Shown in pieces: positions 4,801 to 32,282 of a stretch of DNA of 40,254 bases (position 1 is the first letter of the stretch; every line of letters begins with the position of its first letter). The notes beneath the pieces were generated by a model. It ran no database searches. It was not told where the DNA came from and worked only from the letters and a program-made list of their open reading frames with translations. Source of the DNA: a virus (lineage: Duplodnaviria; Heunggongvirae; Uroviricota; Caudoviricetes); IMG/VR virus record IMGVR_UViG_2541047843_000009; one strand, written 5' to 3'. Made by a program: the position numbers and the translations under genes.

Positions 4801-4970
4801 CGGTAGCTGTCCAGACTGCTCCCGGCCTGATCAAGCTGCTTTATTGCATCGCGGGATTTTTTGACAGCAGCAGCCAGTTCTCTTGAACTGGCCTGCGCAG
4901 ATCGAAATGGGCGGGTGAGCTTGTCAACCGCATTAAGAATGACCTGCAGACGCAGGTTGTTATCACTCAT
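1893..4970 (-). CDS. T: Tail tape measure protein
   Basis: 1025 aa; coiled-coil N-terminal part, Ala/Gly-rich hydrophobic repeats; sits between E/E' and U. Confidence 0.9.
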   Translation of the reverse strand: MSDNNLRLQVILNAVDKLTRPFRSAQASSRELAAAVKKSRDAIKQLDQAGSSLDSYRKLQAENQKLGDRLNYARQRANLLSQELGAMGPPSQRQVVALGRQRLAVQRLEERQKKLQQQTALVRAELYRAGISAKDDAGATARLARETSRYNQELSKQEARLKRLGEAQRRMNAARASYARSLEVRDRIAGAGATTTAAGLAMGAPVMAAVKSYTSMEDAMKGVAKQVNGLRDDNGNRTARFYEMQDAIKAASEQLPMENGAVDFAALVEGGARMNVANPDDSWEDQKRDLLAFASTAAKAATAFELPADELSESLGKIAQLYKIPTRNIEQLGDALNYLDDNAMSKGADIIDVMQRLGGVADRLDYRKAAALGSTFLTLGAAPEVAASAANAMVRELSIATMQSKSFFEGMNLLKLNPEVIEKQMTKDAMGTIQRVLEKVNALPQDKRLSAMTMLFGKEFGDDAAKLANNLPELQRQLKLTAGNDALGSMQKESDINKDSLSAQWLLVKTGAQNTFSSLGETLRQPLMDILYTVKSVTGALRRWVEANPELTGTLMKASAVVAAVTVGLGTLAVALAAVLGPLAVIRLGFSVLGIKTLSSVTAAVTRTSSALSWLAGAPLALLRRGLASSGNAAGLLTAPLSSLRRTASLTGNVLKTVAGAPVALLRSGLSGLRAVAVMFMNPLAVLRGGLAAAGTVLRVLASGPLAMLRVALYAISGLLGALLSPIGLVVTALAGVALVVWKYWQPITAFLGGVVEGFKAAAGPISAAFEPLKPVFQWIGDKVQALWGWFTDLLTPVKSTSAELQSAAAMGRRFGEALAEGLNMVMHPLDSLKSGVSWLLEKLGIVSKEAAKAKLPESVTRQQPATVNADGKVMMPSGGFPSWGYGFAGMYDSGGYIPRGQFGIVGENGPEIVNGPANVTSRRNTAALAAVVAGMMGVAAAPAELPPLHPLALPAKGGEAIVSRAATVPLVQRIEAPTQIIIQTQPGQSAQDIAREVARQLDERERRLKAKARSNYSDQGGYDA

Positions 4971-5142
4971 CGTTGGCCCCGCTTCTCTGAATCGCTTTAT
5001 ACCGCCATTCCAGCACTTCGGTCAGCGGCATAACGTCAGTAACGGATGGCGGCCAGTGAAAAATGGTGGCGATATCTGCCACCAGATCGTCAACCGTCAG
5101 GCTGTCGGTAAACCGGCAAGCACCGACTTCTTCAACAAAAAA
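4963..5142 (-). other. E': E' extension reached by -1 programmed frameshift at TTTTTTG (minus strand, plus coords 5136-5142); the shifted frame stays open to a TGA at 4963-4965, overlapping the T start
   Basis: Translated by hand: the -1 frame after the slippery site gives about 57 codons (VEEVGACRFTDSLTVDDLVADIATIFHWPPSVTDVMPLTEVLEWRYKAIQRSGANDE) and ends inside the first codons of T, as in P2. Confidence 0.7.
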
Positions 5143-5399
5143 GTGACAACCTCAACCGACATGGCAGTGAGATCTGCCGGGTCCATCTCTGCAATTTCCT
5201 GTGCAGTCAGTGCCGGACTGGAGATGCGGGGGATCACGGTCATCATCGCGTTTACATCCATATCCATAATGGCCTGCAGGCGTGTACCGCGCAGCGCACC
5301 GGACTGCGGTTTACGCAGCACAATTTCGGTGATTTCTGTTTTACCGCGCTTGATGGGGGTATCCAGTTGAATGGTCTTTTCAGTCTGCTTATCGCTCAT
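5097..5399 (-). CDS. E: Tail assembly chaperone E (zero-frame product)
   Basis: 100 aa immediately downstream of FII; contains the slippery heptamer near its 3' end. Confidence 0.8.
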   Translation of the reverse strand: MSDKQTEKTIQLDTPIKRGKTEITEIVLRKPQSGALRGTRLQAIMDMDVNAMMTVIPRISSPALTAQEIAEMDPADLTAMSVEVVTFLLKKSVLAGLPTA

Positions 5400-5453
5400 T
5401 TTGCTGTCCTGTCAATTGGGTTCTGGCGCGGTATCCCGCGCCGTTCAGATATA

Positions 5454-5969
5454 TCAGAGGCCGAGGGCGTTGCGGTGCGCTTCCATCAGGTCCACACCGT
5501 CCACAATTTCCACCATGTTGATAAGGTCCACTTCATAGAGCACCTCACCATTGATGGTCAGCTTCGCGTAGCTGTTGGTACTGGTCACTTTGGTGGTGTT
5601 GCTTTCGCCCGTCTTCCACTCGCCGGAATCCACTTCTTTGTGACGTCCACGCACGACAAGCTCCACGGCCTGCACTTCCCCGGTATCGTCACGCTGAATA
5701 GAGCCGGTAAAGCGCAGCTGGATGCCATCCACCGTGGCTTTACCCATCTGTTTAAACAGCAGCAATTCAGTACCACCAATGGAAAATTCTGTGTCCAGCG
5801 CACTGTCATCAAGCCCCAGATCCACATCCACCGCACCCGGCATTCCGCCGCCGCGATACTTCTCATATTTGCGGGTAAATTTCGGCAGCGTCAGCGACTC
5901 AACGATCCCCTGCCAGTTGTTCCCGTCGTTAAACAGGTTCAGGTGTTTTAATTTGCGTGGTAAAGCCAT
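5454..5969 (-). CDS. FII: Tail tube protein FII
   Basis: 171 aa directly downstream of the sheath gene. Confidence 0.85.
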   Translation of the reverse strand: MALPRKLKHLNLFNDGNNWQGIVESLTLPKFTRKYEKYRGGGMPGAVDVDLGLDDSALDTEFSIGGTELLLFKQMGKATVDGIQLRFTGSIQRDDTGEVQAVELVVRGRHKEVDSGEWKTGESNTTKVTSTNSYAKLTINGEVLYEVDLINMVEIVDGVDLMEAHRNALGL

Positions 5970-5978
5970 GTTGTCCCC

Positions 5979-7151
5979 TTACGCGCTGACCTGGCTGGCG
6001 AAATTCACCAGGTACTGATCGGTGATGCGCTGACGCAGCATCAGGTTTTCAAGTGGCGGCACTGGCGTGTAGTCGTAGTCGATGGTGAGTTTTCCGGCTT
6101 TCAGCGTGTCTTTGTCGTTCACCGACTCATCCAGCCAGCAATCACCACCAATGAGATAGCCCTGACTGACCAGGCTGCGCATTTTGGCGCGGATACCTTC
6201 GATAATGTCGCGGGCCAGCGACGGGTTAAGCGGTTTATCCACCGCCCACATGTGTGCTTCTGCCATCGTGTCCATCAGCACCTGCGCCGTGCGGGTGTAG
6301 TTTTCGAAGGCAAAGAGCGGGTCATCACTCAGGCAGCGGGAACCCCAGAAGCGGAAACCGTCTTTACGCACAAGCGTGGTGACGTCGTTCTGGTTCAGCA
6401 GACCTGCATCGGTTGCCGGGTTCTGCAGATCCCAGAACACATCTGCAGAAATTCCGGTGACACCGTTCACGCCCACGTTGGACAGGCTTTTGTGCCATCC
6501 GGTCTGCTCGTCAATTTTGGCGCGCAGACCAAGCGCACGGGCGGTGGCATATGCCGTTGCTTCGGCATTCAGCACCGTGTCCCAGCCAGTAAAGTCAGGC
6601 CAGATCAGCATCCCTTCGCGCTGGCTGAAGTTTTCGCGGTAAGTGATCGCCTCCTGCACTGTCTTGCAGCCATACGCTGACAGGTAAGCAAATCCACGCA
6701 GGCTTTGCGCCACGCTCAGCAACTCAGTAGCTACCGCCTTGGTGTCGTGGCCTGGCACGCCGAGAATGCGCGGTTTAACGCCGAGCTGTGACTGGGCAGA
6801 TAACAGGGCTTTCATACCTGTTTTTTTACCTTCAGCAGTCACTGCGCCGATGATATTGGTCGTGGTTTCGTCTTCCGTTTCACCCTGCGGCACACGCACA
6901 ACAATGGTCACGGGTTTTGCCTGGTCAGCGATGGCATCCAGCGAACGGGCCAGAGTACCTGACTCACCCGCTTTACCGCTGGCAGTCAGCACATCAGTGA
7001 TCAGCACGGGTTTATTAAGAGGAAACATTTTTGCATCGGCATCATCGCCCGTGCAGACCATACCCACGATGGCGGTGCTCACCGTGGTAATAGATCGGGT
7101 GCCTTCGTTGACTTCAACAACGCGCACCCCGTGGTGGTAATCCTGAGCCAT
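5979..7151 (-). CDS. FI: Contractile tail sheath protein FI
   Basis: 390 aa; first gene of the FI-FII-E-T-U-D block. Confidence 0.9.
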
Positions 7152-7227
7152 AGTGGCGAACCTCCTGATTGGATTAGGCTTCGCCCTATGTTGAAGTGAT
7201 TGTGCCTGACAAACAGCTAAGCGCAGT

Positions 7228-7245
7228 TGTGTCGTTATTCACACA
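7228..7245 (-). promoter_or_regulatory. Candidate Ogr-dependent late promoter element (TGT-N12-ACA) upstream of FI
   Basis: tgtgtcgttattcacaca lies 77-94 nt upstream of the FI start. Confidence 0.5.
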
Positions 7246-7293
7246 AAATAACGGTATTTGTCTGCTTGCAGGGATAATCAACATAATGCTGAT

Positions 7294-7860
7294 TCAGGGG
7301 GATTCATTGATCTTATTTGCCGGAAATTTTCTATAAATGGTAGAAACGCCTACATCAAAAATCAGTGCAATACGCTGTATTGATTCTCCGGCCTCGAGTA
7401 AACGCCCAATCTGTGCCCACTGTTCGGTGGTCAACTTAGGACGGCGTCCACCTACTCTGCCTTTGGCACGAGCTGCAGCCAGCCCTGCCCTGGTACGTTC
7501 AACTATCAGTTCGCGTTCCATTTCAGCCAGGGCACCCATGACATGAAAAAAGAAACGGCCCATTGGGGTACTGGTATCAATACTGTCAGTCAGGCTTCTG
7601 AAATTCACACCACGCTGGCGCAACTCTTCTATCAGCGTAACAAGATGCCGCATACTGCGCCCCAACCTGTCCAGCTTCCAGACAACCAGCGTGTCTCCTG
7701 CCGATAGTGTCCTGAGTAGTTTTTTCAGCCCCGGTCTGTCGGACTTAGTGCCACTGATTTTGTCCTCAAAAATCTGCTCACATCCCGCGCAGTTCAGTGC
7801 ATTACGTTGCAAATCGGTGTTCTGGTCATTTGTTGACACGCGTACATAGCCAATAAGCAT
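7294..7860 (-). CDS. Serine DNA invertase, Gin/Hin/Pin/Cin family
   Basis: N-terminal MLIGYVRVSTNDQ with the catalytic Ser, VVWKLDRLGRSM motif and C-terminal helix-turn-helix; GGGGG ribosome-binding site before the ATG at 7860. Confidence 0.9.
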   Translation of the reverse strand: MLIGYVRVSTNDQNTDLQRNALNCAGCEQIFEDKISGTKSDRPGLKKLLRTLSAGDTLVVWKLDRLGRSMRHLVTLIEELRQRGVNFRSLTDSIDTSTPMGRFFFHVMGALAEMERELIVERTRAGLAAARAKGRVGGRRPKLTTEQWAQIGRLLEAGESIQRIALIFDVGVSTIYRKFPANKINESP

Positions 7861-7928
7861 GATCATCCCCCTGAATAAAAACCGGAGATGATGCCAGTTA
7901 GCTGTTACCTCTGCATTTTCTTAAACGT

Positions 7929-7944
7929 TGGTTTAGGAGAAGGC
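7929..7944. repeat. Inversion crossover site, left inverted repeat
   Basis: ttggtttaggagaagg is the exact reverse complement of 9704-9719. Confidence 0.7.
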
Positions 7945-8343
7945 TCAGCATTGCCTGTTGGCGTACCTGTTCCGTGGCCTTCAGTCACACCGCCAACAGG
8001 CTGGCTGAAATGCAACGGTGCAGCTTTTTCTGCCGAAGAGTATCCGGAACTGGCAAAAGTTTATCCGACAAATAAATTGCCAGATTTACGCGGCGAATTC
8101 ATTCGTGGGTGGGATGATGGAAGAGGAATTGATTCAGGACGGACTCTCCTGTCTGCTCAGGACGGGAGCATTGAGGCACACGGCCATGATTACAATGGGG
8201 TCATCTATACTTCTAGCGGTCCTTCCTGGGCTAATACGACGGATGCGGGACACCGGGCATATTCGGGATTTACATCATCATATGGCGGGAGCGAAACCCG
8301 TCCACGAAATATTGCATTTAACTATATCGTGAGGGCTGCATAA
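7945..8343 (+). CDS. Silent alternative C-terminal segment of the tail fibre (expressed only after inversion)
   Basis: Ends ...RPRNIAFNYIVRAA, the receptor-binding C-terminus type of lambda Stf; has no start of its own downstream of the crossover site. Confidence 0.6.
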   Translation, partial: SALPVGVPVPWPSVTPPTGWLKCNGAAFSAEEYPELAKVYPTNKLPDLRGEFIRGWDDGRGIDSGRTLLSAQDGSIEAHGHDYNGVIYTSSGPSWANTTDAGHRAYSGFTSSYGGSETRPRNIAFNYIVRAA

Positions 8344-8945
8344 TGGATAACGCCGTATTAAATAGCGAGCTTATTGCCACGAAGGCGGGGAATATTACCG
8401 TCTATAACTATGATGGTGAGACGCGGGAATATATTTCTGCATCAACTGAATATCTTGCAGTGGGTGTCGGTATTCCAGCATATTCCTGTTTAGACGCTCC
8501 TGTTACATCTAAGGCTGGTTATACAATTTGCCGTTCTGTGGATTTAAAATCATGGGAATATGTGTCAGACCATCGCGGTGAAATCGTCTATAACACCGAA
8601 ACGGGAGATGCCAAAGAAATCACAGCACTAGGCGACTATCCCGAAAATACAACCACTATCGCCCCGTTAACGCCATACGATAAATGGGATGGTGAAAAAT
8701 GGGTGACAGATGTTGAGGCACAACACGGTGCCGCAGTAGAAGCGGCAGAAGCACAGCGCCAGTCACTGATTGATGCAGCAATGGCTTCCATCAGTCTGAT
8801 TCAACTGAAATTACAGGCCGGGCGGAAGCTGACGCAGCCAGAAAACACCCGACTTAACGCTGTGCTGGATTATATTGACGCGGTGACGGCAACAGATACC
8901 AGCACAGCGCCAGACGTCATCTGGCCTGAACTGCCGGAGGCGTAG
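8343..8945 (+). CDS. Alternative tail-fibre assembly protein (Tfa/U'-like)
   Basis: 200 aa; start overlaps the stop of the alternative fibre segment; C-terminal DTSTAPDVIWPELPEA motif. Confidence 0.75.
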   Translation: MDNAVLNSELIATKAGNITVYNYDGETREYISASTEYLAVGVGIPAYSCLDAPVTSKAGYTICRSVDLKSWEYVSDHRGEIVYNTETGDAKEITALGDYPENTTTIAPLTPYDKWDGEKWVTDVEAQHGAAVEAAEAQRQSLIDAAMASISLIQLKLQAGRKLTQPENTRLNAVLDYIDAVTATDTSTAPDVIWPELPEA

Positions 8946-9357
8946 GCCATTCAATATCTGGCGCACCGGAAGTATCGACCAGTTCCAGTGCGTCCAGATA
9001 ATCCAGCCACAAATTATATTGCGCCAGTTCCCCACCTTTCAGGCGACCAATCGCCGCTTTACCAGGCCATTGCTTACTGTTTATGTATTCGTTGACCTGA
9101 TTAATCAATTGCTGCTTTTCCAGTTCGGCTGCGGCAATTTGTTCCTCATGAGTTGGCGGTGGAATATCAATCCATGCAGGCATTCCGTCGATGACACCTC
9201 TGTATTTTCCTTCTGGTGCTTCCTTCATAAATTCGGCGGCAACAGTGTCGTCAATTTCGATTCCATCACCGGGCCATTCGCCGGATTCCTGATAAGCGAT
9301 TTTAAGCTCCACAGGGAAAAACGCATTTTTATCGGCACTGAAAATATATTTCTGCAT
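8917..9357 (-). CDS. G: Tail-fibre assembly protein (currently expressed orientation)
   Basis: 146 aa directly after H; C-terminal VDTSGAPDIEWP motif. Confidence 0.8.
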   Translation of the reverse strand: MQKYIFSADKNAFFPVELKIAYQESGEWPGDGIEIDDTVAAEFMKEAPEGKYRGVIDGMPAWIDIPPPTHEEQIAAAELEKQQLINQVNEYINSKQWPGKAAIGRLKGGELAQYNLWLDYLDALELVDTSGAPDIEWPTPPAVQAR

Positions 9358-9359
9358 TT

Positions 9360-10766
9360 CTACCGTCCTATCGAAATATAACTGAATCTGTATTGCTGTG
9401 AGATATCACTGGTTGCCACACGCCACGCTGAATTACTGATATGTTCAAAATTTACAGACAAAACCTGCGGGGCAGGATTCGACGGGTCTGACTGAACGGC
9501 ATCAGACATAACACTGACTGAAACCATCGGCTGATTAGGGAATGGTATAGGGAAGTGTCCACTGATAAAGCGGGTCGTGTTTCCTGAAAAAGTGCCAAAC
9601 TGAACAATATATCCACCTGGTAGCCTGAACCATCCCGAACCAGAAGCGAATGCTCCCATATCCGGTATCTGATTATCTCCTGTGCCCACATCCCTTTTCG
9701 CCGCTTCTCCTAAACCAAGGTATGTGAGAAGACCAGCTACATCCTTTCCACTCAAATTGGTAAGCGTATTGTCCAGCGGTTGTTTACCTGCCAGCGCATT
9801 AAGCATTGTCGTGGCAAAGTTCGGATCATTCCCCAGTGCCGCCGCCAGTTCGTTCAGTGTATCCAGTGCAGCAGGTGCAGAACCCACCATTCCTGCAATC
9901 GCCGATTTCACAAAAGCCGTAGTGGCAATCTGTGTATTGTTGACCGACTGCGCCGCCGTGGGGGCTGTTGGCGTTCCGGTGAGTGCCGGACTCGACAACG
10001 GTGCTTTTAGTGCCAGCGCATTGTTAATGGTGGTACTGAAATTCGGATCATTGTTAATGGCTGCGGCTATTTCTTTCAGCGTGTCCAGCGTGGCTGGCGC
10101 ACCATTAATAAGGGCCGTCAGTGCCGCCTGTACAAACGCAGTGGTCGCAACCTGCGTGGTATTATTCCCCGCCGCTGGCGTTGGCGCTTTGGGGGTTCCG
10201 GTAAATGTCGGGCTGGCTTTTGGCGCGTACTGTGAATGCGGGTCCGGTGCGGCAAGATGTTTTGCCATCTGATCATCCGCGTACACCTTCAGCTCCAGTG
10301 CCTTGTCATCCACATACTTGCGGGTTGCCAGCACTACAGCAGGGTCGATTTTCAGGGTGATATTGTCCGTGCTGCTGGTAATCAGCACCATGCGCACGGT
10401 CTGAGTGCGCCCGCTACCTTCAGCCAGTTGCGGCTTATAGCTTTCCGGGCAGTTGCCCACGGCAATCAATGCCCCGGACTCATCAAACAAGCCCACTTCA
10501 CGTATCCACCAACCGCCCTCGTTTTCAGGGATCACCTGTTCGGCAATAATCTGGCTGCTGTTCTGCGGGTCGATATAAAGCATATTCAGCGCAGCCCGGC
10601 GTTTCTCATTTACCAGTGCCGTCTGCTTTGCGTCCGGCGTTGGCAATACTCCACTGCCATCGCCCACCGCCATATGGGTAATTTTTAGCGGCACACCGAG
10701 CGCGGCGGCGCTGGCAAGTTTCGCCGCGCCAATATCCGTCAGCAGGGTATAAAATTTTGTGCTCAT
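9360..10766 (-). CDS. H: Tail fibre protein H (constant N-terminus, invertible C-terminus)
   Basis: 468 aa; Ala/Thr-rich repeats (TTQVATTAFV..., NDPNF...); the 3' 345 nt lie inside the invertible segment. Confidence 0.85.
   Translation of the reverse strand: MSTKFYTLLTDIGAAKLASAAALGVPLKITHMAVGDGSGVLPTPDAKQTALVNEKRRAALNMLYIDPQNSSQIIAEQVIPENEGGWWIREVGLFDESGALIAVGNCPESYKPQLAEGSGRTQTVRMVLITSSTDNITLKIDPAVVLATRKYVDDKALELKVYADDQMAKHLAAPDPHSQYAPKASPTFTGTPKAPTPAAGNNTTQVATTAFVQAALTALINGAPATLDTLKEIAAAINNDPNFSTTINNALALKAPLSSPALTGTPTAPTAAQSVNNTQIATTAFVKSAIAGMVGSAPAALDTLNELAAALGNDPNFATTMLNALAGKQPLDNTLTNLSGKDVAGLLTYLGLGEAAKRDVGTGDNQIPDMGAFASGSGWFRLPGGYIVQFGTFSGNTTRFISGHFPIPFPNQPMVSVSVMSDAVQSDPSNPAPQVLSVNFEHISNSAWRVATSDISQQYRFSYISIGR
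9704..9719. repeat. Inversion crossover site, right inverted repeat
   Basis: ccttctcctaaaccaa, reverse complement of 7929-7944, located inside the tail-fibre gene H. Confidence 0.7.
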
Positions 10767-19208: not shown

Positions 19209-20975
19209 ATGAACACCACACTGACACCCGCAGATCTCGATCCCCGTCGGCAGGCCATGCTGCTGTACTTTCAGGGATACCGCGTAGCCCGCATTGCTGA
19301 AATGCTGGGCGAGAAAGTTGCAACCGTTCACAGCTGGAAAAAACGCGACAAGTGGGGTGACTATGGGCCGCTGGATCAGATGCAGCTCACCACCGCCGCA
19401 CGCTACTGCCAGCTCATTATGAAGGAGCACAAAGAAGGGAAAGATTTCAAAGAGATTGACCTGCTGGCGCGCCAGTCGGAGCGCCATGCGCGGATCGGCA
19501 AGTTTAACAATGGCGGCAACGAAGCCGACTTAAACCCTAACGTCGCCAACCGCAACAAAGGCCCGCGCCGTCAGCCGGAAAAGAACGTTTTCACCGATGA
19601 ACAGATTGAGAAGTTGGAAGAAATCTTCCATTCCTCCATGTTCAACTACCAGCGCCACTGGTGGGAAGCCGGAAAAACCAACCGCATCCGCAACCTGCTG
19701 AAGTCACGCCAGATCGGCGCGACCTTCTATTTTGCCCGTGAAGCCCTGATTGACGCCCTGCTAACCGGGCGTAACCAGATTTTCCTTTCCGCCAGCAAGG
19801 CTCAGGCCCACGTCTTTAAGCAGTACATCATCGACTTCGCCAAAGAAGTGGAGGTGGAGCTGAAAGGCGATCCGATGGTGCTTCCTAACGGGGCCACGCT
19901 GTACTTCCTCGGCACCAATGCCCGCACGGCCCAGAGTTACCACGGCAACCTGTATCTGGATGAATATTTCTGGATACCGAAATTCCAGGAGCTGCGCAAA
20001 GTGGCTTCCGGTATGGCTATTCACAAAAAATGGCGACAAACCTATTTTTCCACGCCATCCAGCCTGACACACAGTGCTTATCCGTTCTGGTCCGGTGCGC
20101 TGTTCAACCGAGGGCGCAACAAAGCCGATAAGGTGGACATCGACCTGTCCCACAGCAATCTGGCCCCCGGCCTGCTGTGCGCAGACGGGCAGTACCGCCA
20201 GATAGTCACTGTGGAAGATGCGGTGCGCGGCGGCTGTAACCTGTTCGACCTCGACCAGTTGCGCATGGAGTACAGCCCGGACGAATACCAGAACCTGCTG
20301 ATGTGTGAGTTCGTGGACGATCTCGCGTCTGTGTTCCCACTCAGCGAGCTGCAGGCGTGCATGGTGGACAGTTGGGAAGTCTGGACCGACTTTCATGCAC
20401 TGGCCCTGCGCCCGTTTGGCTGGCGCGAAGTGTGGATCGGATATGACCCGGCGAAAGGTACGCAGAACGGCGACAGCGCCGGATGCGTGGTGGTGGCGCC
20501 GCCAGCCGTGCCGGGCGGTAAGTTCCGCATTCTTGAGCGTCACCAGTGGCGCGGAATGGACTTCCGCGCCCAGGCTGACGCCATCAAAAAACTGACCGAA
20601 CAGTACAACGTGACCTATATCGGTATCGACTCAACCGGCGTTGGTCACGGGGTTTACGAGAACGTGAAAGCGTTTTTTCCTGCCGTCCGGGAGTTTGTCT
20701 ACAACCCCAACGTTAAAAACGCCCTGGTACTCAAGGCCTACGACATTATCAGCCACCGCCGTCTGGAGTTTGACGCCGGACACACCGACATAGCGCAGTC
20801 CTTTATGGCAATCCGTCGCGCCACCACCGCCAGTGGCAACCGCCCGACCTATGAAGCCAGCCGCAGCGAAGAAGCCAGCCACGCCGATCTGGCCTGGGCA
20901 ACGATGCACGCACTGTTTAACGAACCGCTGCAGGGCGAATCCGCCAATACCAGCAATATTGTGGAGATTTTTTGA
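19209..20975 (+). CDS. P: Terminase large (ATPase) subunit P
   Basis: 588 aa; 4-nt overlap with Q. Confidence 0.9.
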   Translation: MNTTLTPADLDPRRQAMLLYFQGYRVARIAEMLGEKVATVHSWKKRDKWGDYGPLDQMQLTTAARYCQLIMKEHKEGKDFKEIDLLARQSERHARIGKFNNGGNEADLNPNVANRNKGPRRQPEKNVFTDEQIEKLEEIFHSSMFNYQRHWWEAGKTNRIRNLLKSRQIGATFYFAREALIDALLTGRNQIFLSASKAQAHVFKQYIIDFAKEVEVELKGDPMVLPNGATLYFLGTNARTAQSYHGNLYLDEYFWIPKFQELRKVASGMAIHKKWRQTYFSTPSSLTHSAYPFWSGALFNRGRNKADKVDIDLSHSNLAPGLLCADGQYRQIVTVEDAVRGGCNLFDLDQLRMEYSPDEYQNLLMCEFVDDLASVFPLSELQACMVDSWEVWTDFHALALRPFGWREVWIGYDPAKGTQNGDSAGCVVVAPPAVPGGKFRILERHQWRGMDFRAQADAIKKLTEQYNVTYIGIDSTGVGHGVYENVKAFFPAVREFVYNPNVKNALVLKAYDIISHRRLEFDAGHTDIAQSFMAIRRATTASGNRPTYEASRSEEASHADLAWATMHALFNEPLQGESANTSNIVEIF

Positions 20976-22009
20976 TGGGAAAGAGTAAGAAGAACCGCGC
21001 TGCGGCGACGAAACAGATCCAGCTTAAAAGTCAAACTACAGCCGAAGCATTCAGCTTCGGCGATCCCGTTCCTGTTCTGGACCGCCGAGAACTGCTGGAT
21101 TATGTGGAATGCGTACAGATGGACCGCTGGTATGAGCCGCCCGTCAGCTTTGACGGACTGGCGCGCACCTTCCGCGCTGCCGTTCATCATAGTTCCCCGA
21201 TTGCAGTAAAGTGCAACATTCTGACCAGCACCTACATCCCTCACCCGCTGCTCAGCCAGCAGGCTTTTTCGCGTTTTGTGCAGGACTATCTGGTATTTGG
21301 TAACGCCTACCTGGAGAAACGCACGAACCGCTTCGGTGAAGTTATCGCCCTTGAACCTGCCTTGGCAAAATACACCCGACGCGGGTTAGACCTGGATACC
21401 TACTGGTTTGTGCAATACGGTATGACCACGCAGCCATATCAGTTCACGAAAGGCAGCATCTTTCATCTGATGGAACCGGACATCAACCAGGAGATCTACG
21501 GCCTGCCCGGTTATCTTTCTGCTATTCCATCCGCCCTGCTCAACGAGTCTGCCACGCTGTTCCGCCGCAAGTATTACATTAACGGCAGTCATGCAGGCTT
21601 CATCATGTATATGACCGACGCCGCGCAGAACCAGGAAGATGTGAACAACCTCCGCAACGCGATGAAAAGCGCCAAAGGCCCTGGCAACTTCCGCAACCTG
21701 TTTATGTACTCGCCTAACGGCAAAAAGGACGGGCTTCAGATCATCCCGTTGTCAGAAGTCGCAGCGAAAGATGAATTTCTGAACATCAAGAACGTGAGCC
21801 GGGACGACATGATGGCTGCACACCGCGTACCGCCTCAGATGATGGGAATTTTGCCGAATAATGTTGGGGGGTTTGGGGATGTGGAGAAGGCAAGTCGGGT
21901 ATTTGTTCGTAATGAATTAATACCTTTGCAAAAACGTTTCGAAGAATTAAATTTATGGCTAAAAAATAATATTATTACATTCAAAGAATATCAACTATCC
22001 CTAGACTAA
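20972..22009 (+). CDS. Q: Portal protein Q
   Basis: 345 aa; the last 35 codons or so are AT-rich. Confidence 0.85.
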   Translation: MMGKSKKNRAAATKQIQLKSQTTAEAFSFGDPVPVLDRRELLDYVECVQMDRWYEPPVSFDGLARTFRAAVHHSSPIAVKCNILTSTYIPHPLLSQQAFSRFVQDYLVFGNAYLEKRTNRFGEVIALEPALAKYTRRGLDLDTYWFVQYGMTTQPYQFTKGSIFHLMEPDINQEIYGLPGYLSAIPSALLNESATLFRRKYYINGSHAGFIMYMTDAAQNQEDVNNLRNAMKSAKGPGNFRNLFMYSPNGKKDGLQIIPLSEVAAKDEFLNIKNVSRDDMMAAHRVPPQMMGILPNNVGGFGDVEKASRVFVRNELIPLQKRFEELNLWLKNNIITFKEYQLSLD

Positions 22010-22014
22010 TTAAT

Positions 22015-22035
22015 AACCACCTCTATGAGGTGGTT
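22015..22035. terminator. Bidirectional hairpin between the convergent Q and ORF469
   Basis: Perfect 9-bp stem aaccacctc / gaggtggtt around a 3-nt loop. Confidence 0.5.
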
Positions 22036-22056
22036 AACAAGAATAAACCTAATTAA

Positions 22057-23466
22057 TTACTCATCTACTCTGATTTTTTGTTTTTTATTATTTTGAGTTA
22101 AGACATTTATGGTAATAGATGTATACGGATGAAAGTCAGGAACTATACTTTTAACCTCTCCATTTTCAAGAAAATGATGTGCTATTGAAGGAAATAAATC
22201 AGGATCTACAGGATATTTAGCATTAGGATTATGATACATATTTAAACCTTCTGCCCATGTTTCTGTAATATCGCCTTCTTTCACTTCAAAACTAAATGCT
22301 GCTGGATATAATGCCTCTGGGTCATGATCATGGCAGTAACCACTCCTAAATAATCTAAGGTCACTTCTTCCAAAACCAGCCAGTTTTCCCATCCGATTAA
22401 ACTTCGATATAGTACCACTATTAGAACTAAGGACGGCCGAAATATTTTCAGACTCATCCAAGAAGAAAAAGCCTGAAGGAATTTCCTTTTTCTCAAATTG
22501 ATGCGATATAATTTTCTTAGTTGCTAAACTGTAACATCCATCTTCAGATTTAACATGCTCATAGCGAATACCATAAAGATACTGCCAAAGTGCACTATGG
22601 GACCAAATCATAGAGTTTGGTTCATGAAAATCAGCAATTGCGAAAATTAAAGGATTCCCCTTAACATGTTCTAGATCCCAGTATCGAGTTTTCTTTTTCA
22701 GTTTAGAATAGAGAGAACTTCCAAATTTAATCGGCATATAATTCTCTATTTTCTCTAGCAATTCTTCCTTACTTTTAGGTTCTGATAGCATTTCAGATGA
22801 TTGATTAATATCATTCCCTGTTGGATTAACCGTTACAGCTTCAATGCAAATAGTATTACCATACTTACGTGCCACATAATCAGGGGCATTAAACTGCCTA
22901 TCTAGCCAAAAGTGTTCCTCTCGTAAATATGCGAAAAGATATAACTCCCATAGCCGGGCATCAAAACCTGTTGTCTGAAACTGCTCTATAAAATTCCCGT
23001 CGACATCCTCAAAATGATTCATCATTTCCTTGATTATCCCTGTTGCAGGCGACCAGTTCGCGTATTTACCAAATAATGAAAAATGATGATGAAGTTTATC
23101 TGGTGTAACTATAGGTGTGAATAAATCCATTGCTTTATAAGTTTCATCACCTTGTGGAAATACTTTTACGTTTAATTTAGTATGCTTCCGCATTAATTTC
23201 TTTAGTTTTGCTCGTGCAGAATTCATTTCTGAAACACTAGTAAATAGGTCAATACATCTATATCTCCCACTTAAGTCTCTTGCTAAAACAATACCGCTAT
23301 AATCTTCATCGATTTGATCCAATAATAGTGCCCCTAGCAGGAACTCTCTCGGACTACAGTACCACTCAAACTCATAGCCTAAAAGTTCAGTATTTGGCAT
23401 TCTGGTCCAATCAACAAAAGCATTAAACCTCTCTTTACTCATTTTTTTTATATCAAGAAAAGACAT
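22057..23466 (-). CDS. Hypothetical 469-aa protein; AT-rich cargo gene, candidate anti-phage defence or abortive-infection protein of unassigned family
   Basis: Long ORF in clearly AT-rich DNA between portal and cos, convergent with Q; GAGGT about 9 nt before the ATG; no Walker A motif; no family recognised. Confidence 0.7.
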   Translation of the reverse strand: MSFLDIKKMSKERFNAFVDWTRMPNTELLGYEFEWYCSPREFLLGALLLDQIDEDYSGIVLARDLSGRYRCIDLFTSVSEMNSARAKLKKLMRKHTKLNVKVFPQGDETYKAMDLFTPIVTPDKLHHHFSLFGKYANWSPATGIIKEMMNHFEDVDGNFIEQFQTTGFDARLWELYLFAYLREEHFWLDRQFNAPDYVARKYGNTICIEAVTVNPTGNDINQSSEMLSEPKSKEELLEKIENYMPIKFGSSLYSKLKKKTRYWDLEHVKGNPLIFAIADFHEPNSMIWSHSALWQYLYGIRYEHVKSEDGCYSLATKKIISHQFEKKEIPSGFFFLDESENISAVLSSNSGTISKFNRMGKLAGFGRSDLRLFRSGYCHDHDPEALYPAAFSFEVKEGDITETWAEGLNMYHNPNAKYPVDPDLFPSIAHHFLENGEVKSIVPDFHPYTSITINVLTQNNKKQKIRVDE

Positions 23467-23564
23467 CTTTCTACCTCATCACGAAAAAATATTTTTTCCT
23501 AAAAAGACTTAAGTTAGCTTAATCTATTGATAAAAAAAAGCTAAGTAACGACCAAATACGCGCG

Positions 23565-23583
23565 CTCGTATCCCCGCCACGCC
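23565..23583 (-). other. Candidate cos cohesive-end site
   Basis: Minus strand reads GGCGTGGCGGGGATACGAG; the first 13 nt match the 186/P2 cohesive-end consensus as I recall it (from memory). Confidence 0.45.
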
Positions 23584-23632
23584 TGCCCGCTTTATGTAGT
23601 GGTTTTCATGCACCTGCATGATCTACGCAAAA

Positions 23633-23652
23633 GCCCGCCAGTTCTGGCGGGC
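23633..23652 (-). terminator. Candidate rho-independent terminator of the A-orf-dinI operon
   Basis: Perfect 9-bp GC-rich stem gcccgccag / ctggcgggc followed on the minus strand by TTTTGCG. Confidence 0.45.
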
Positions 23653-23787
23653 CTTAGCAAAAACGATCCTCAAACGATCATGCGATCTCATGCGGCATAG
23701 ACATGCACTACAGAGCTAACGCCTCGCAAGGGCTCGTTGTTCAACCTTGCTGACGCCAGAAGCAAGTTCAGACGCCAGCAACGTTTC

Positions 23788-24021
23788 TTAATGCAGCCAG
23801 CTGTCGTCTTCCCACACCTTCTGCATAATTTTCATCACTTGTTTTCTTTCTTCGTCCAGTTGCAGTCCGGTTAGTTCCACACCGTTAGAGCTACCTTTGC
23901 GAATGCGAATTACCGTTTTGGGATACAGGGGGCGCAGATTGCGGTAAAGCTCGGATTCAAGGGCGTCCAGGGTAGACTGGCTAATCTTCTGCTCTTTATC
24001 GATCATTATTTCAATGCGCAT
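23788..24021 (-). CDS. DinI-like protein
   Basis: 77 aa from MRIEIMIDK..., ending ...VWEDDSWLH, resembling DinI; GGTGA ribosome-binding site. Confidence 0.7.
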   Translation of the reverse strand: MRIEIMIDKEQKISQSTLDALESELYRNLRPLYPKTVIRIRKGSSNGVELTGLQLDEERKQVMKIMQKVWEDDSWLH

Positions 24022-24031
24022 AAAAGTCACC

Positions 24032-24220
24032 TCAGCTGATGACATCCATTGAGCGGTTGTATTCGTGGGTTCTGATTTTTGCCATGAGTTCATCAGTCAA
24101 TTCAGAAACCCACTGCAGAGCCAGCCCCTTCTCTTCATCACTACACTCACTAGCCGCTACAAGCTTAAGAAAAAAATCAATGCGCTGGAGCTTCAAAGAC
24201 TCCAAAAAATAGTCCTGCAT
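24032..24220 (-). CDS. Hypothetical small protein (62 aa)
   Basis: AGGAGG 4-5 nt before the ATG at 24220; the longer track ORF is probably an artefact. Confidence 0.5.
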   Translation of the reverse strand: MQDYFLESLKLQRIDFFLKLVAASECSDEEKGLALQWVSELTDELMAKIRTHEYNRSMDVIS

Positions 24221-24364
24221 CTTTCCTCCTATGACACCACACGCAATGCTGTATGCATAACCACTGTTTATATTTACAGTATATAATAATCTTACTGATG
24301 TAAAACGATTTTTTACGTTCATCAGCCTGGTATTATTAAGAGCACGAATTGTTAACCCGCGTAA

Positions 24365-26779
24365 TTAATACAGGTTCCGCCACTGATCATCTTCCTGCAA
24401 ACGCTGGTTCCGATAGAAGATACGCAGGCCTGCTCCTGACGGAATACTGCCTCCGCGAAGGAGTAAATCGACCTCTTTCTCGCTGCCATCAAATCCTCTG
24501 GACTTCAGCTCATACACGAGCTGCAGTCGCTGATGGTCTGTAATTCGCTGTTTGTAGTCTTTACGCCGTTTCGGTTTCACCAGGCGTAACCTTGCTGCCA
24601 GTTCCCGGCGCTCTTTTTTGCTCATACTGTGCAGGTAATCGTGCAACTCCTTGTCATCCATGCTGGTAATGTCCGTTCTGGGGTCCCCATCAGCTGATTT
24701 ATCTTTCTCCTGTTGGTTCAAATTTTCAGCAAGGGGACAGTTATTGCCACGAGTCCAAGGGGCGCAAGCGCCCTGGTCGGCTGCCGCCTCCTGAACGTCA
24801 ACGGCCTTACGAACCATTTTCCACTTCACGGCATGAGTGCAGATCTTGCCCTCTGCAATAGGTGACCAGATGCCATAAATACGAATGCCGTGATCGCCAT
24901 AGGCGGTCGGCTCTTCGTTGATTTCATAAGCAGTTCTGATAAGGTGATATTTACGGGGAACCAGTACGCCGCCCTGCTTCATGATGTAGGTGGCAAAACA
25001 ACCAGCATCAGCAGCAGCCAGGATTGCATCAAGGCGCGGGTTATCCAGTACCGGCGCACCTGCTTTTTTGTCACCCTGTTGCCTTGCCGCCTGACCAGCC
25101 AGCAATCGCAGTTCACGGTAAGCCTGACGCCCCGGAATGCCAAAGAAGCGGAATTGCTGAACACGATGCAGAGACGCCCAGGCATTCACGTATTCAGCGT
25201 TATCACGCAGGGATTTACCCGTTTCCTTGCTGATCTCGCCAGCCAGACCACGCCCGTCAATGTTCTTACTGATATATTTCGCGATGTAGCTTGTCGGCGT
25301 TCCTTTGCGCGGGTTAATCAACTCAGACTTAAAGCGCGGCCCCGTGTTATTGCCCAGCTCCTCGCGGTCTTCACGGATGGCAAACTTACGCAGTAATGCA
25401 GTGATGGCGCGGCGGTCTTTTTTGCGCATAAAACACAACAGGTGCCAGTGAACTGTACCGTCATGATGCGGCTCAGCCACCCGCACGCCATACCAGCGCA
25501 ATCCGGCTTTGTGCATCGCCTTACGAAATGCAGCAAACATGCCGACCAAATAATCACTGCTTTGTCTTACCGTCGCATTTGTCCAGTTCGGGTTGGGTCT
25601 GCCGTTATTTAGCGTGGAATGGAAACGTGACGGACAGGTGATGGTGTAGAAAACGGCGCAGTCACCGCGCATTTCCGCGATAAGTTCCAGACCTTTAACA
25701 CAGGCCATCATCTCATTGCGGCGATGCGCAGGGTTGCTGCTGCTGGCGTTTACCACATCCTCCATGTCCAGCGTGTCGCCGTCTTCGTTCACCAGTTCAT
25801 GAGAACGGAAAAACTCCAGCGACTTACGGCGCTGCTCACGTTTATGCATCACGGCTTCATAGCTGACATAAGGAGATGCTTTTTTGCTGACCAGGCAGAC
25901 AGCGCGCAACTGCTCTTCCCGCCATTCGCAACGCATCTTCCATAATTTCCGGTACCACCAGTCAGCGCACAACATACGCGCCAGCGAACCCGGAATGAGT
26001 TCATAGGGCACGGGTTTACGGCGGTTTCTTTTCCGACGGAGTTGCTCAAACGCAGGCGGGATAACATCCAGACGCAGGGTTTCCGCTGCCACCTTTTCCC
26101 ATGTCTTGCGGATTTCTTCTGGCTTAACGTCATCGGTGGCATACAAATCACCACAAGCTGCATCAAGGCACATGCTCATATGCGCAGCGACAAGGGTAGA
26201 CAGGCGCTTCACCTGATCCTGACTCATTTCAGGCAGGATAAGCAGGCCATCCAGCCCTTCATGGCTTGCCATAAAGCGAAAAGAAGCGGATAGCTGACTG
26301 TCGCGTACATGCTCCAGTCGTTCCAGACATGGCTTAATCGTCTCACGCAAATAGCGGGAATAAGCCTTTGGCCTGCCCAGGCTGCTGAAGTATTCAATAC
26401 GTTGCATCAGCGGCTTGCTGATATGGGAAGGCTGGGCATTGACGTCCGCCAGAATGACCATATCTGGATTAAAACGCTGCTGCTCATGCGCCAGCTTTGC
26501 CCGACTAATGAGCTTATCCTGCTCCATTTCGCGCTGGACAGGATCACGGGATTCATTAAAGAAATAACGCTCCCAGACCTGATCACTCAGTGCCTCGCGG
26601 CGCAGCTGTTCCTGCTCGTTATCGGCAGCGTACAGAGTGATCAGGTTTGAAAGCGCAGAAACCGGCGCAACTTCCGCCGGGTCCAGATAAGGGTTAATGG
26701 CCTTTTTCGGGCTGTTCCATGAGAACGATGCGGCAGCCTCGTTAAAGCCGCAGCAGTTGTTCATATCGGCATGGCTCAT
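24365..26779 (-). CDS. A: Replication initiation endonuclease A (rolling-circle, HUH type)
   Basis: 804 aa; [10 protein letters not shown] motif; ATGA overlap with the upstream methylase gene. Confidence 0.9.
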
Positions 26780-27633
26780 GCACGTACTCCGTACACGGCA
26801 GAACTATCCACGCCACGCGAATAATCAAATCCCACCCAGCAGCGCGGCCCGGAAACAGCAATGATTTCTGTTGCTGATTTACCCTCGCCAGCTGCCACAC
26901 CGATGCTGCGTTTTGCCTTGATGTAGTGGTGAGTAAAATTGCGATACAGCGAACGGATCAGGGATGTGTCACTGTTAGAAACAATGACCGGATGTCCTTC
27001 TGATGACCGATGTTCAAGAACAGATGCCAGGTGATACTGGTCATCTTCAGTGAAACCATCAGTGTGATAGCCGGAAAACGTACCGTCATACGGCGGATCG
27101 CAATACACCACATCCCCCGCCTTCAACATCGCCAGCGTTTCATCAAAGCTGGCGCAGATAAACGTTGCTCGCTGGGCCTTTTCTGCAAATGCGCGAATTT
27201 CTTTTTCAGGGAAATACGGATTTTTATAATTACCGTAGGGAATGTTGAAATGCCCGCTCTTGTTATAGCGACATAAACCACGGTAACCGTGACGATTGAG
27301 ATACAGGAAATATACCGCTTTCATGAAATCAGTAATTTCAGTGGAGTAATTAAACTCCTGCCTTATGTTGTAATAAGCCACCTCCCTGTTTGCGATCTCA
27401 AATAAAACTCTGGCGCGAGATATAAACGATTCACAATCAGCAGCAACCTTTTTATAGAGGTTGATTAAATCAGGATTAATATCCGCAACCAGATAGCTGG
27501 GGTAATCCGTCTCCATCATCACAGCACAGGAACCCGCGAAAGGTTCAACCAGTCGCGGGCCAGCAGGAAGGTGTTTTTTCAGTTCGGACATAATGGCGGT
27601 TTTATTTCCCGCCCATTTCAGGATGGTGCTCAT
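26776..27633 (-). CDS. DNA N6-adenine methyltransferase, Dam-like
   Basis: DPPY catalytic motif (VVYCDPPY) and N-terminal AdoMet-binding region (EPFAGSCAV); start taken at [11 protein letters not shown]. Confidence 0.85.
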
Positions 27634-30457: not shown

Positions 30458-31474
30458 ATGACCATCAGAAAACAGCCGAACGGAAAATGGTTGTGTGAGT
30501 GCTATCCCAATGGACGCAATGGTAAGCGCGTGCGTAAGCAATTTGCTACCAAAGGCGAAGCCATTGCATTTGAAAGCTTCACAATGGAAGAAGTGAACAA
30601 AAAACCGTGGTTAGGAGAAAAGGATGATCGGCGACACCTATCAGAATTAATTGAGCTTTGGTATTCCCTGTATGGTCAGACACTCGCAGACCCCAAGCGC
30701 CTCATGGCGAAACTTAGAATTATCTGTAATGGTCTAGGCGACCCCATCGCCTCAGAACTGACAGCCGGTGACTTTACGAAATACCGCGAAGCACGGTTAA
30801 AAGGTGAAGTACGAAATGAAGATGGCACGTTTATGTCGCCCGTTAAGCCCCGCACGGTAAACCTTGAACAGCGCAATCTATCATCTGTTTTTGGTACGCT
30901 GAAAAAGCTGGGCCACTGGTCAGCCCCCAACCCGCTTGCTGGGCTGCCAACATTTAAAATTGCTGAGAGTGAATTGGCGTTCCTGACCCCGGAAGAAATT
31001 AAACGTCTGCTGGATGCCTGCGCCGATTCTCAAAGCTCCAGCCTGCTTTTGATTGCAAAAATATGCCTGGCCACCGGCGCACGCTGGAGCGAAGCCGAAA
31101 ACCTGCAGAGTCATCAGGTATCAAAATACCGTATCACTTATACCAAGACCAAAGGCAAGAAAAACCGAACTGTGCCTATTTCTAAGGATTTATATGAAGA
31201 ACTGCCTAAGAATAGGGGGAAGTTATTCACCCCATGCAGAAAAGCCTTTGAGCGTGCAGTAAAGCGGGCTGGTATCGATCTGCCAGAGGGTCAATGTACT
31301 CACGTTCTGCGTCATACATTCGCTAGCCATTTTATGATGAATGGTGGAAACATATTGGTTTTGCGGGATATCCTAGGACATTCAGATATAAAAATGACCA
31401 TGGTCTATGCACACTTCGCCCCAGACCATTTAGAAGATGCCGTAACTAAAAATCCTTTATTTAATTTGAGGTAA
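30458..31474 (+). CDS. int: Tyrosine integrase (P2/186 type)
   Basis: 338 aa; C-terminal ...HVLRHTFASHF...LGHSDIKMTMVYAH catalytic region with the Tyr. Confidence 0.9.
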   Translation: MTIRKQPNGKWLCECYPNGRNGKRVRKQFATKGEAIAFESFTMEEVNKKPWLGEKDDRRHLSELIELWYSLYGQTLADPKRLMAKLRIICNGLGDPIASELTAGDFTKYREARLKGEVRNEDGTFMSPVKPRTVNLEQRNLSSVFGTLKKLGHWSAPNPLAGLPTFKIAESELAFLTPEEIKRLLDACADSQSSSLLLIAKICLATGARWSEAENLQSHQVSKYRITYTKTKGKKNRTVPISKDLYEELPKNRGKLFTPCRKAFERAVKRAGIDLPEGQCTHVLRHTFASHFMMNGGNILVLRDILGHSDIKMTMVYAHFAPDHLEDAVTKNPLFNLR

Positions 31475-31484
31475 GTAGTAATTT

Positions 31485-32153
31485 ATGAATAGCGAACTAG
31501 AGTTACTTATAAAAATATTATTCCCTTCCCTATCTGCCATTATATCCTTATTAGGGCTTAAAACAGGGTGGACTTATAAAAAAGATAAACTATTCACATC
31601 ACGTAAAAACATTAGCGAATTTTCATATCAGATGTATAAAAGCAGTGAAGATCCGACCTTCAAAAAACTGGCGGAAGATTACGGCATTGCTGCATTAACC
31701 AAAGATAACACATTGACAAAAAAACAAAGATTAATATTACTCAACACAACAAACCCCGTTAGCGATATAGATAATTATTCCAAATGTCAAAGTCTAATTT
31801 CCATTACCACCCATAAAGAAATATTCGCATGGAATAAAAAAAGATATAAATACAGCATATATAGAAAATTAATAAAAATCATAACAACTCTAATTTACTT
31901 CATGAGCAGTCTCATCGTAGCACTTCCTTTCAGTTATTCTGTTGTAGTAAGTGCTAAGATGATGGAGAAGATAAACCATCTAACTACTTGGCAATACTTT
32001 GGTTTAAGCAGCTATTTTGTGGTATCGGGAGTAGCAATATGCTTTATCTGCCTAGATAAGCTCTCCAAGATTAAGATCGCCGAGAGATTAATCGTTTCGA
32101 ATAGGCGTTTAGGCGACAAATGCAGTGGCGGCACTTTGGCGGCAGAAAGTTAA
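31485..32153 (+). CDS. Hypothetical AT-rich membrane protein (222 aa, about 3 transmembrane helices); candidate moron or superinfection-exclusion gene
   Basis: Starts 10 nt after the int stop; hydrophobic helices at the N-terminus and around residues 133-157 and 172-191; very AT-rich. Confidence 0.6.
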   Translation: MNSELELLIKILFPSLSAIISLLGLKTGWTYKKDKLFTSRKNISEFSYQMYKSSEDPTFKKLAEDYGIAALTKDNTLTKKQRLILLNTTNPVSDIDNYSKCQSLISITTHKEIFAWNKKRYKYSIYRKLIKIITTLIYFMSSLIVALPFSYSVVVSAKMMEKINHLTTWQYFGLSSYFVVSGVAICFICLDKLSKIKIAERLIVSNRRLGDKCSGGTLAAES

Positions 32154-32237: not shown

Positions 32238-32282
32238 TATGTAGGAATTTCGGACGCGGGTTCAACTCCCGCCAGCTCCACC
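32238..32282 (+). other. ssrA: 45-nt copy of the tmRNA (ssrA) 3' end; prophage att core at the prophage-host junction
   Basis: atgtaggaatttcggacgcgggttcaactcccgccagctccacca matches the ssrA 3' terminus as I recall it; the sequence upstream does not continue as ssrA, so this is a core duplicate. Confidence 0.7.

Follow-up and report, generated by a model that had tools for sequence, protein, structure and literature searches.

This locus raises the question of what a single AT-rich gene, lying between the portal gene and the cos site of a phage 186-type prophage, encodes and what it contributes to its carrier. The gene is located in a window of 40,254 nucleotides (nt), the whole stretch of DNA analyzed here (IMG/VR virus record IMGVR_UViG_2541047843_000009; Caudoviricetes), and corresponds to an open reading frame (ORF) of 469 amino acids (aa) on the minus strand (22057..23466; start codon ATG at 23466, stop codon TAA at 22057). 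A preliminary description, made from the letters of the window, had considered the gene an uncharacterized orphan without family placement and had proposed that it is single-gene anti-phage cargo. Here, we show by profile comparison that the ORF belongs, over its full length, to the PD-T7-1 family of defense proteins, and we propose, with a probability of about 0.8, that it represents a self-contained, horizontally acquired defense cassette with a nuclease effector, situated at the hotspot next to the cos site of a 186-like prophage.

Membership in the PD-T7-1 family

The probability that 469 codons are free of stops by chance, given the base composition of the ORF itself, was 2.4e-17. When the cassette carrying the gene was shuffled 500 times, the longest stop-free stretch had a mean of 78 and a maximum of 144 codons, as against 472 observed. 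The 469-aa ORF is therefore not a chance ORF, and its guanine-cytosine (GC) content at codon positions 1, 2, and 3 (0.45, 0.34, and 0.26) was as usual for coding sequence. It is the one real gene of the cassette, the other listed ORF (71 aa; 22281-22496) being nested in it on the same strand.

The PADLOC model of PD-T7-1 (PDLC04073) matched the protein end to end (E = 1.3e-196; 651.7 bits), with residues 7-457 aligned to positions 2-449 of the 452-position profile. The PADLOC model of PD-T7-5 matched residues 113-436 only (E = 1.4e-56; 190 bits). Pfam gave no match to the 469-aa protein at E-values up to 10, NCBIfam returned noise and nothing relevant, and sequence searches of the PDB yielded nothing relevant with either the protein or the family profile as query; these blank searches explain why the protein could not be placed at first reading. 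The PHROGs match was phrog_8571, annotated as "unknown function". A word-indexed search found more than 3700 homologs, and a profile search of a 50%-identity representative library retrieved 3014 clusters at E <=0.001, including 714 at E <=1e-30, so that the gene is neither an orphan nor without a family. The PADLOC run that the preliminary description had suggested thus named the family, and its core proposal of single-gene anti-phage cargo gains support, at the level of sequence, from membership in a validated family and from the variable slot that the gene occupies.

PD-T7-1 is a single gene from E. coli ECOR46 and one of 21 systems obtained by functional selection (Vassallo et al., 2022; PMC9519451). 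Under its native promoter on a low-copy vector, the prototype reduced plaquing while leaving adsorption unaffected, and it acted on T2, T4, and T6 and less on T7 (Vassallo et al., 2022; PMC9519451). The authors labeled it "Nuclease", a putative DNase, on the basis of weak HHpred matches to Hjc and other PD-(D/E)xK models (PMC9519451). A PD-T7-1 homolog of strain NILS69 protects against a Teseptimavirus and shrinks T7 plaques. Our search of the literature on PD-T7-1 and PD-T7-5 found no mechanism paper, and no biochemical data in the papers naming them.

To compare the window protein with the tested protein, the prototype was sought via its published cloning primers, and metagenome contigs were scanned with the reverse primer, which gave one contig. 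On this contig (QZLJ01001264.1), each primer has an exact match, and the two enclose a 449-aa ORF at 6416-7765, with primer-to-ORF margins of 45 nt and 302 nt, as in Table S2 of Vassallo et al.; given the exact matches and the published margins, this ORF (RCQ85672.1) is the tested prototype. The same primers have no site in the window. A common 449-aa E. coli protein, found in phage mEp460_ev081, had been the first candidate for the prototype and was rejected, as the forward primer has two mismatches there and the protein is 60% identical to the true prototype. In BLASTP, the prototype and the window protein shared 31% identity and 50% positives over 453 residues (E = 3e-73). The prototype scored 511 bits on the PADLOC PD-T7-1 model, lower than the window protein, which is accordingly a central rather than a marginal member of the family. 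The two share the family model, a three-module layout, and the invariant residues, and each is encoded by one gene that stands on a mobile element together with an upstream region of its own; they differ in length (449 versus 469 aa) and in neighborhood. Instead of a P2/186 portal-cos slot, the prototype is surrounded by a P4-type integrase gene (4774-6141) and a D5_N/Pox_D5 primase-helicase-like gene (8831-10651), and these neighbors suggest that its locus is a P4-like satellite or island.

Relatives with 32-36% identity were found in other phage accessory slots. One lies between the tail-fiber assembly and tail-sheath genes of Yersinia phage vB_YpM_46 (Peduovirus; locus L002, 4989-6338), one amid tail genes of a Klebsiella Reipivirus (locus L006, 5001-6359), and one between the replication genes and the hok/rem/Q antiterminator genes of the lambdoid phage mEp460_ev081 (locus L003, 3989-5338). 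The slot in vB_YpM_46 coincides with the second P2 hotspot (Z/fun).

Three domain layouts were distinguished in the family. The first, that of the window protein, consists of a module of ~110 aa followed by the core; the second consists of the core alone (~345-375 aa), as in PD-T7-5. The third is circularly permuted: the core leads, and an evident homolog of the ~110-aa module follows at the C-terminus (representatives P0172, P0186, and P0212); these proteins start near "DLF.P.V", and two of them finish in "VFPQ(G)D". One representative has an extra repeat-rich C-terminal extension that appears TPR-like by eye. PD-T7-5, from E. coli UMB0934, is a validated single-gene defense likewise labeled "Nuclease" (Vassallo et al., 2022; PMC9519451). 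It has the nuclease core and C-terminal region in common with the window protein but lacks the ~110-aa N-terminal module, and the extra 110 N-terminal residues place the window protein outside the core-only layout. The fit of the window protein to PD-T7-1 is much better (651.7 versus 190 bits).

A variable cassette in the cos-proximal hotspot

The gene lies in a 186-type prophage with genes for the portal, terminase, capsid, tail, replication endonuclease, a Dam-like methylase, CII, Fil, CI, and integrase. Similarity to other P2/186-like prophages and phages ended at ~22009, the portal stop, and was back at 23559, and the variable cassette was therefore delimited as 22010-23558. It directly adjoins the portal stop codon on one side and reaches to within 6 nt of the cos cohesive-end sequence on the other, whereas the counterpart interval of phage 186 comprises 176 nt only and carries the portal-gene terminator tW. 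The first 13 nt of the cohesive-end sequence GGCGTGGCGGGGATACGAG (minus strand, 23583..23565) are the same as those of the annotated cos of phage 186, GGCGTGGCGGGGAAAGCAT. The junction upstream of cos, "cataaagNgggca|GGCGTGGCGGGGA", is common to the window and phage 186, as is "cataaag(c/t)gggca" immediately ahead of cos. The GC content is 0.26-0.38 between ~21900 and 23550 and 0.53-0.60 in the flanks; for the 1549-bp cassette it is 34.3%, compared with 54.6% and 51.5% on the two sides, from which we infer a foreign, horizontally acquired origin. The coordinates of all features of the locus are compiled in Table 1.

These data agree with the preliminary description in most respects: an AT-rich stretch (given there as ~21900-23520) against GC-rich flanks, one long minus-strand ORF convergent with the portal gene (Q), a location between the portal gene and a candidate cos site, and a protein of 469 aa without a Walker A motif. 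Two details needed correction. The perfect hairpin between the ORF and Q is present, but its stem is 10 bp rather than 9 bp, with arms at 22014-22023 and 22027-22036 and a 3-nt loop; and GAGGT does precede the ATG, but at 23473-23477 and with a spacing of 6 nt rather than about 9 nt. The hairpin possibly serves as a bidirectional terminator, a role that we put forward cautiously because it has no T-run and was not called by the terminator scan. The gene is presumed to have its own promoter in the AT-rich region upstream of it, because the cassette looks autonomous.

The slot was examined further by matching a 3.4-kb hotspot query (21000-24400; portal end, cassette, and gene A start) to 5426 complete E. 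coli genomes. The query was matched in 1290 of them, and only 22 matched at least 80% of it, that is, carried the PD-T7-1 cargo. Alternative cargo in the same slot included TIR-domain proteins, retrons Ec67 and St85, AIPR, DUF262, and DUF4145 proteins, RES NAD+ phosphorylase, P-loop ATPases, and RelA/SpoT-like proteins. The comparison with other P2/186-like prophages that had been suggested for this locus thus revealed slot contents that differ among them, and the earlier view of the cos-proximal slot as a hotspot for swappable cargo was borne out.

The P2 hotspot between genes A and Q, home of old and tin, has already been published (Rousset et al., 2022, PMC9122126; Vassallo et al., 2022, PMC9519451). 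The hotspot table of Rousset et al. (PMC9122126) already contains WP_000008839, which is this very protein, as "hypothetical"; this is the only literature occurrence that we found, and the accession is absent from the main text of the papers. Like the window gene, P2 old and tin are swappable anti-phage cargo in the same cos-proximal locus (Odegrip et al., 2006; Rousset et al., 2022, PMC9122126). The proteins that they encode are unrelated to the window protein. On the P2 map, old and tin lie on the A side of cos, whereas the window cassette lies on the portal side, at the 6-nt distance given above.

The gene was found in 25 complete E. coli genomes at >=99.6% identity, and every copy was chromosomal and annotated as "hypothetical protein". 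Several carriers are extraintestinal pathogenic E. coli (ExPEC) or avian pathogenic E. coli (APEC), namely S88, BEN5202, UPEC132, and ExPEC XM. In public records, members of the family are named "hypothetical protein" (RefSeq) or "glycosaminoglycan attachment protein" (some UniRef and GenBank entries). The P2-hotspot clone that Rousset et al. derived from strain S88 (pFR103, "putative HEPN") was considered as a possible copy of this gene and ruled out, as its insert encodes a different protein (MNDIFVLTREE...); strain S88 itself carries the window gene.

Table 1. Features of the portal-cos-gene A region of the window (positions in the window)
Feature	Position	Strand	Basis
Portal gene (P2 Q / 186 W homolog), left hotspot anchor	20972..22009	+	ORF and annotation
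Variable AT-rich cargo cassette (hairpin, gene, and upstream region)	22010..23558	.	GC contrast; similarity break at both ends
Hairpin between the convergent portal and putative defense genes	22014..22036	.	Perfect 10-bp stem
Putative defense gene of the PD-T7-1 family, 469 aa, WP_000008839.1	22057..23466	-	ORF, PADLOC profile, and prototype alignment
Predicted beta-rich C-terminal region, residues 280-457; F334, K355, R358, E402, W404, N413, P414 near-invariant	22096..22629	-	Model and conservation
Predicted PD-(D/E)xK-type nuclease core, residues 156-279; Q164, R171, E174, P195-D196, E209, K255 invariant	22630..23001	-	
Predicted N-terminal alpha/beta module, residues 1-110: helix, four-stranded antiparallel sheet, helix; acidic cluster D50/D53/D55/D64	23137..23466	-	
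AT-rich upstream region with GAGGT at 23473-23477, presumed own promoter	23467..23558	-	Sequence
cos cohesive-end sequence GGCGTGGCGGGGATACGAG	23583..23565	-	13/19 nt match to annotated phage 186 cos; junction in common
DinI/Tum-like gene, between cos and the replication endonuclease gene	23788-24093		
62-aa ORF, between cos and the replication endonuclease gene	24032-24220		
Replication endonuclease gene (P2 A homolog), right hotspot anchor	24365..26779	-	ORF and annotation

Predicted nuclease site and proposed mode of action

Structural information was obtained from an AlphaFold2 model built on a 53-sequence alignment. The model (mean predicted local distance difference test score, 88.6; predicted template modeling score, 0.89) confidently predicts a three-module fold. 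Its residues 1-100 fold into a helix, a four-stranded antiparallel sheet, and a second helix. In the core, it shows a helix at residues 168-183, strands at 187-188, 197-201, and 204-213, a helix at 233-256, and a strand at 273-279. Conservation was scored over 154 family representatives. Seven residues (Q164, R171, E174, P195, D196, E209, and K255) were 100% conserved in the 150-154 representatives covering them, and all are kept in the window protein; near-invariant residues were D156 in the core and F334, K355, R358, E402, W404, N413, and P414 in the C-terminal region. In the model, the first core helix carries E174, the second strand opens with P195-D196, and the third strand carries E209, a placement that fits the canonical PD-(D/E)xK motif.

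The same conservation data bear on the possibility that the effector is a nucleotidyltransferase-like or HD/HDHD phosphohydrolase enzyme, which was prompted by motif-like strings that the preliminary description had noted in this single sequence. For the G-S...D-x-E pattern, G249 and S250 are conserved in 71-73% of representatives, whereas D264 occurs in 10% and E266 in 18%; these two residues, in "YWDLEH", had been numbered D254 and E256, off by ten. The HDHD cluster is poorly kept (H379 15%, D380 39%, H381 34%, D382 55%), and the R-x4-H motif pairs a well-conserved R374 (81%) with the same variable H379. No structural neighbor has either fold. We consider such an activity very improbable; the invariant residue set points to a PD-(D/E)xK-type nuclease and not to a nucleotidyltransferase.

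The structural neighbors of the model, all of them weak, were mostly DNases and restriction enzymes: EC869 CdiA-CT, Hjc, BsmI, BstEII, HincII, Upx, and NucC. The CdiA-CT nuclease domains (4g6v and 4g6u) align with the window protein over ~115 residues at 8-12% identity, but they are secreted toxin tips with cognate immunity proteins. Upx (9wuf) and the nuclease domain of Shedu (8ti9) were also among these neighbors. The Shedu (SduA) and Gao_Upx systems resemble the predicted architecture in that one protein combines a PD-(D/E)xK core with accessory sensing domains and acts with no methylase; they differ in having no detectable sequence homology to the window protein, in their other accessory domains, and in the motif lysine, which is V or T in the window family. 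For the C-terminal region (280-457), no convincing structural match was found.

The CdiA-CT match also raises the possibility that the protein has the same family membership and defense role but cuts RNA, for example tRNA or rRNA, so that translation is halted and infection aborted. Activity of the prototype against T-even phages, whose DNA is heavily modified, would fit such a target. This alternative appears unlikely, as most of the structural neighbors are DNases or restriction enzymes, no RNA-binding module was recognized, and Vassallo et al. (2022; PMC9519451) class PD-T7-1 as a putative DNase.

Under our preferred interpretation, a PD-T7-1 defense cassette with a nuclease effector, the lysogen would express the protein from the cassette's own upstream region and would thereby be protected against superinfecting lytic phages. 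The effector is predicted to be a metal-dependent PD-(D/E)xK-type nuclease with the acidic triad E174/D196/E209, in which the catalytic lysine may have moved off the third strand. Lysine relocation is known in the PD-(D/E)xK superfamily. From the model, we infer that K255, the invariant lysine at the end of the second core helix, is the most likely candidate for a relocated catalytic lysine, with R171 or K355/R358 as further possibilities. Control over activation or target choice would fall to the N-terminal module of ~110 aa and to the beta-rich C-terminal region, which would keep the nuclease inactive or target-restricted until certain lytic phages infect the cell and thereby either trigger cleavage or expose the substrate. 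The cassette contains no partner methylase or antitoxin, and self/non-self discrimination would therefore be built into the protein.

Several observations weigh against this interpretation. The position of the canonical lysine, two residues past E209, is occupied by V (50%) or T (47%). Foldseek searches of the PDB and BFVD with the model returned nothing at E <=0.001, and no curated PD-(D/E)xK sequence model recognized the protein in Pfam (E up to 10), NCBIfam, or PDB sequence searches; at the sequence level, the nuclease assignment is thus weak, and the published HHpred probability for the nuclease call on PD-T7-1 was at most 80% (PMC9519451). A simple sigma-70 scan called no promoter upstream of the gene. 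An IS1 element interrupts the gene in two broiler-chicken E. coli strains, NZ_CP050031.1 (1136354-1138540) and NZ_CP050036.1, so that the gene is dispensable and can be inactivated. Protection was shown for the prototype and the NILS69 homolog, and it would extend to the window clade, just 31% identical to the prototype, by analogy.

This distance leaves room for a further alternative, in which the gene of the window clade is a moron that confers some benefit other than anti-phage protection, such as exclusion of related P2-like phages only, a role in the prophage's own lytic cycle, or host fitness or virulence. The ExPEC and APEC carriers would be in line with this, and not all cargo of the hotspot is defensive, examples being partition systems and cytolethal distending toxin (Rousset et al., 2022; PMC9122126). 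We nevertheless regard it as improbable: the window protein keeps every family-invariant residue and outscores the prototype on the PD-T7-1 model (651.7 versus 511 bits), and relatives occupy other moron or defense slots in Peduoviridae, a lambdoid phage, and a P4-like element.

A broader and more speculative idea, which we hold to be possible but doubtful, is that the PD-T7-1/PD-T7-5 superfamily as a whole is a modular nuclease with a migrated lysine, in which the ~110-aa acidic module serves as a detachable sensor or autoinhibitor, and that the window clade recognizes another trigger and hence has another phage range. If so, comparison of the three layouts would offer a direct handle on how an orphan nuclease without a methylase separates phage from self.

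As a known, experimentally validated family in a published hotspot, PD-T7-1 is a case in which standard defense annotation (PADLOC) would name the gene. The new biology is accordingly small, namely one more member of the family in the P2/186 cos-proximal hotspot. What value remains is practical: RefSeq still labels the protein "hypothetical", and its clade is distant from the prototype (31%). Together, the invariant residues, the confident model, and the permuted and truncated layouts define concrete mutants and chimeras for the study of the nuclease.

Other features of the window

Strain MSB1_4I carries an otherwise identical prophage, in which a 1761-bp segment outside the cassette (7943-9703 of the window) is present as its exact reverse complement. 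Inverted copies of "(C)TTGGTTTAGGAGAAG" flank the segment, which adjoins a serine invertase gene (7294-7866; Resolvase and HTH_7) and oppositely oriented tail-fiber assembly genes. The region 7294-9703 looks like an invertible tail-fiber (host-range) segment, a Gin/Cin/Pin-type switch caught in the other orientation.

A 222-aa ORF on the plus strand (31485-32153), for which neither Pfam nor PADLOC gave a match, stands beside the integrase gene (30458-31474) and could be a second accessory gene. Identity to strain MSB1_4I stops at 32277, which may mark the boundary between prophage and chromosome.

A Dam-like DNA adenine methylase is encoded on the minus strand at 26776-27633, overlapping the end of gene A, and was called by PADLOC as an "orphan methyltransferase" (E = 3e-111). 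This gene belongs to the conserved backbone of the prophage and lies outside the cargo cassette.

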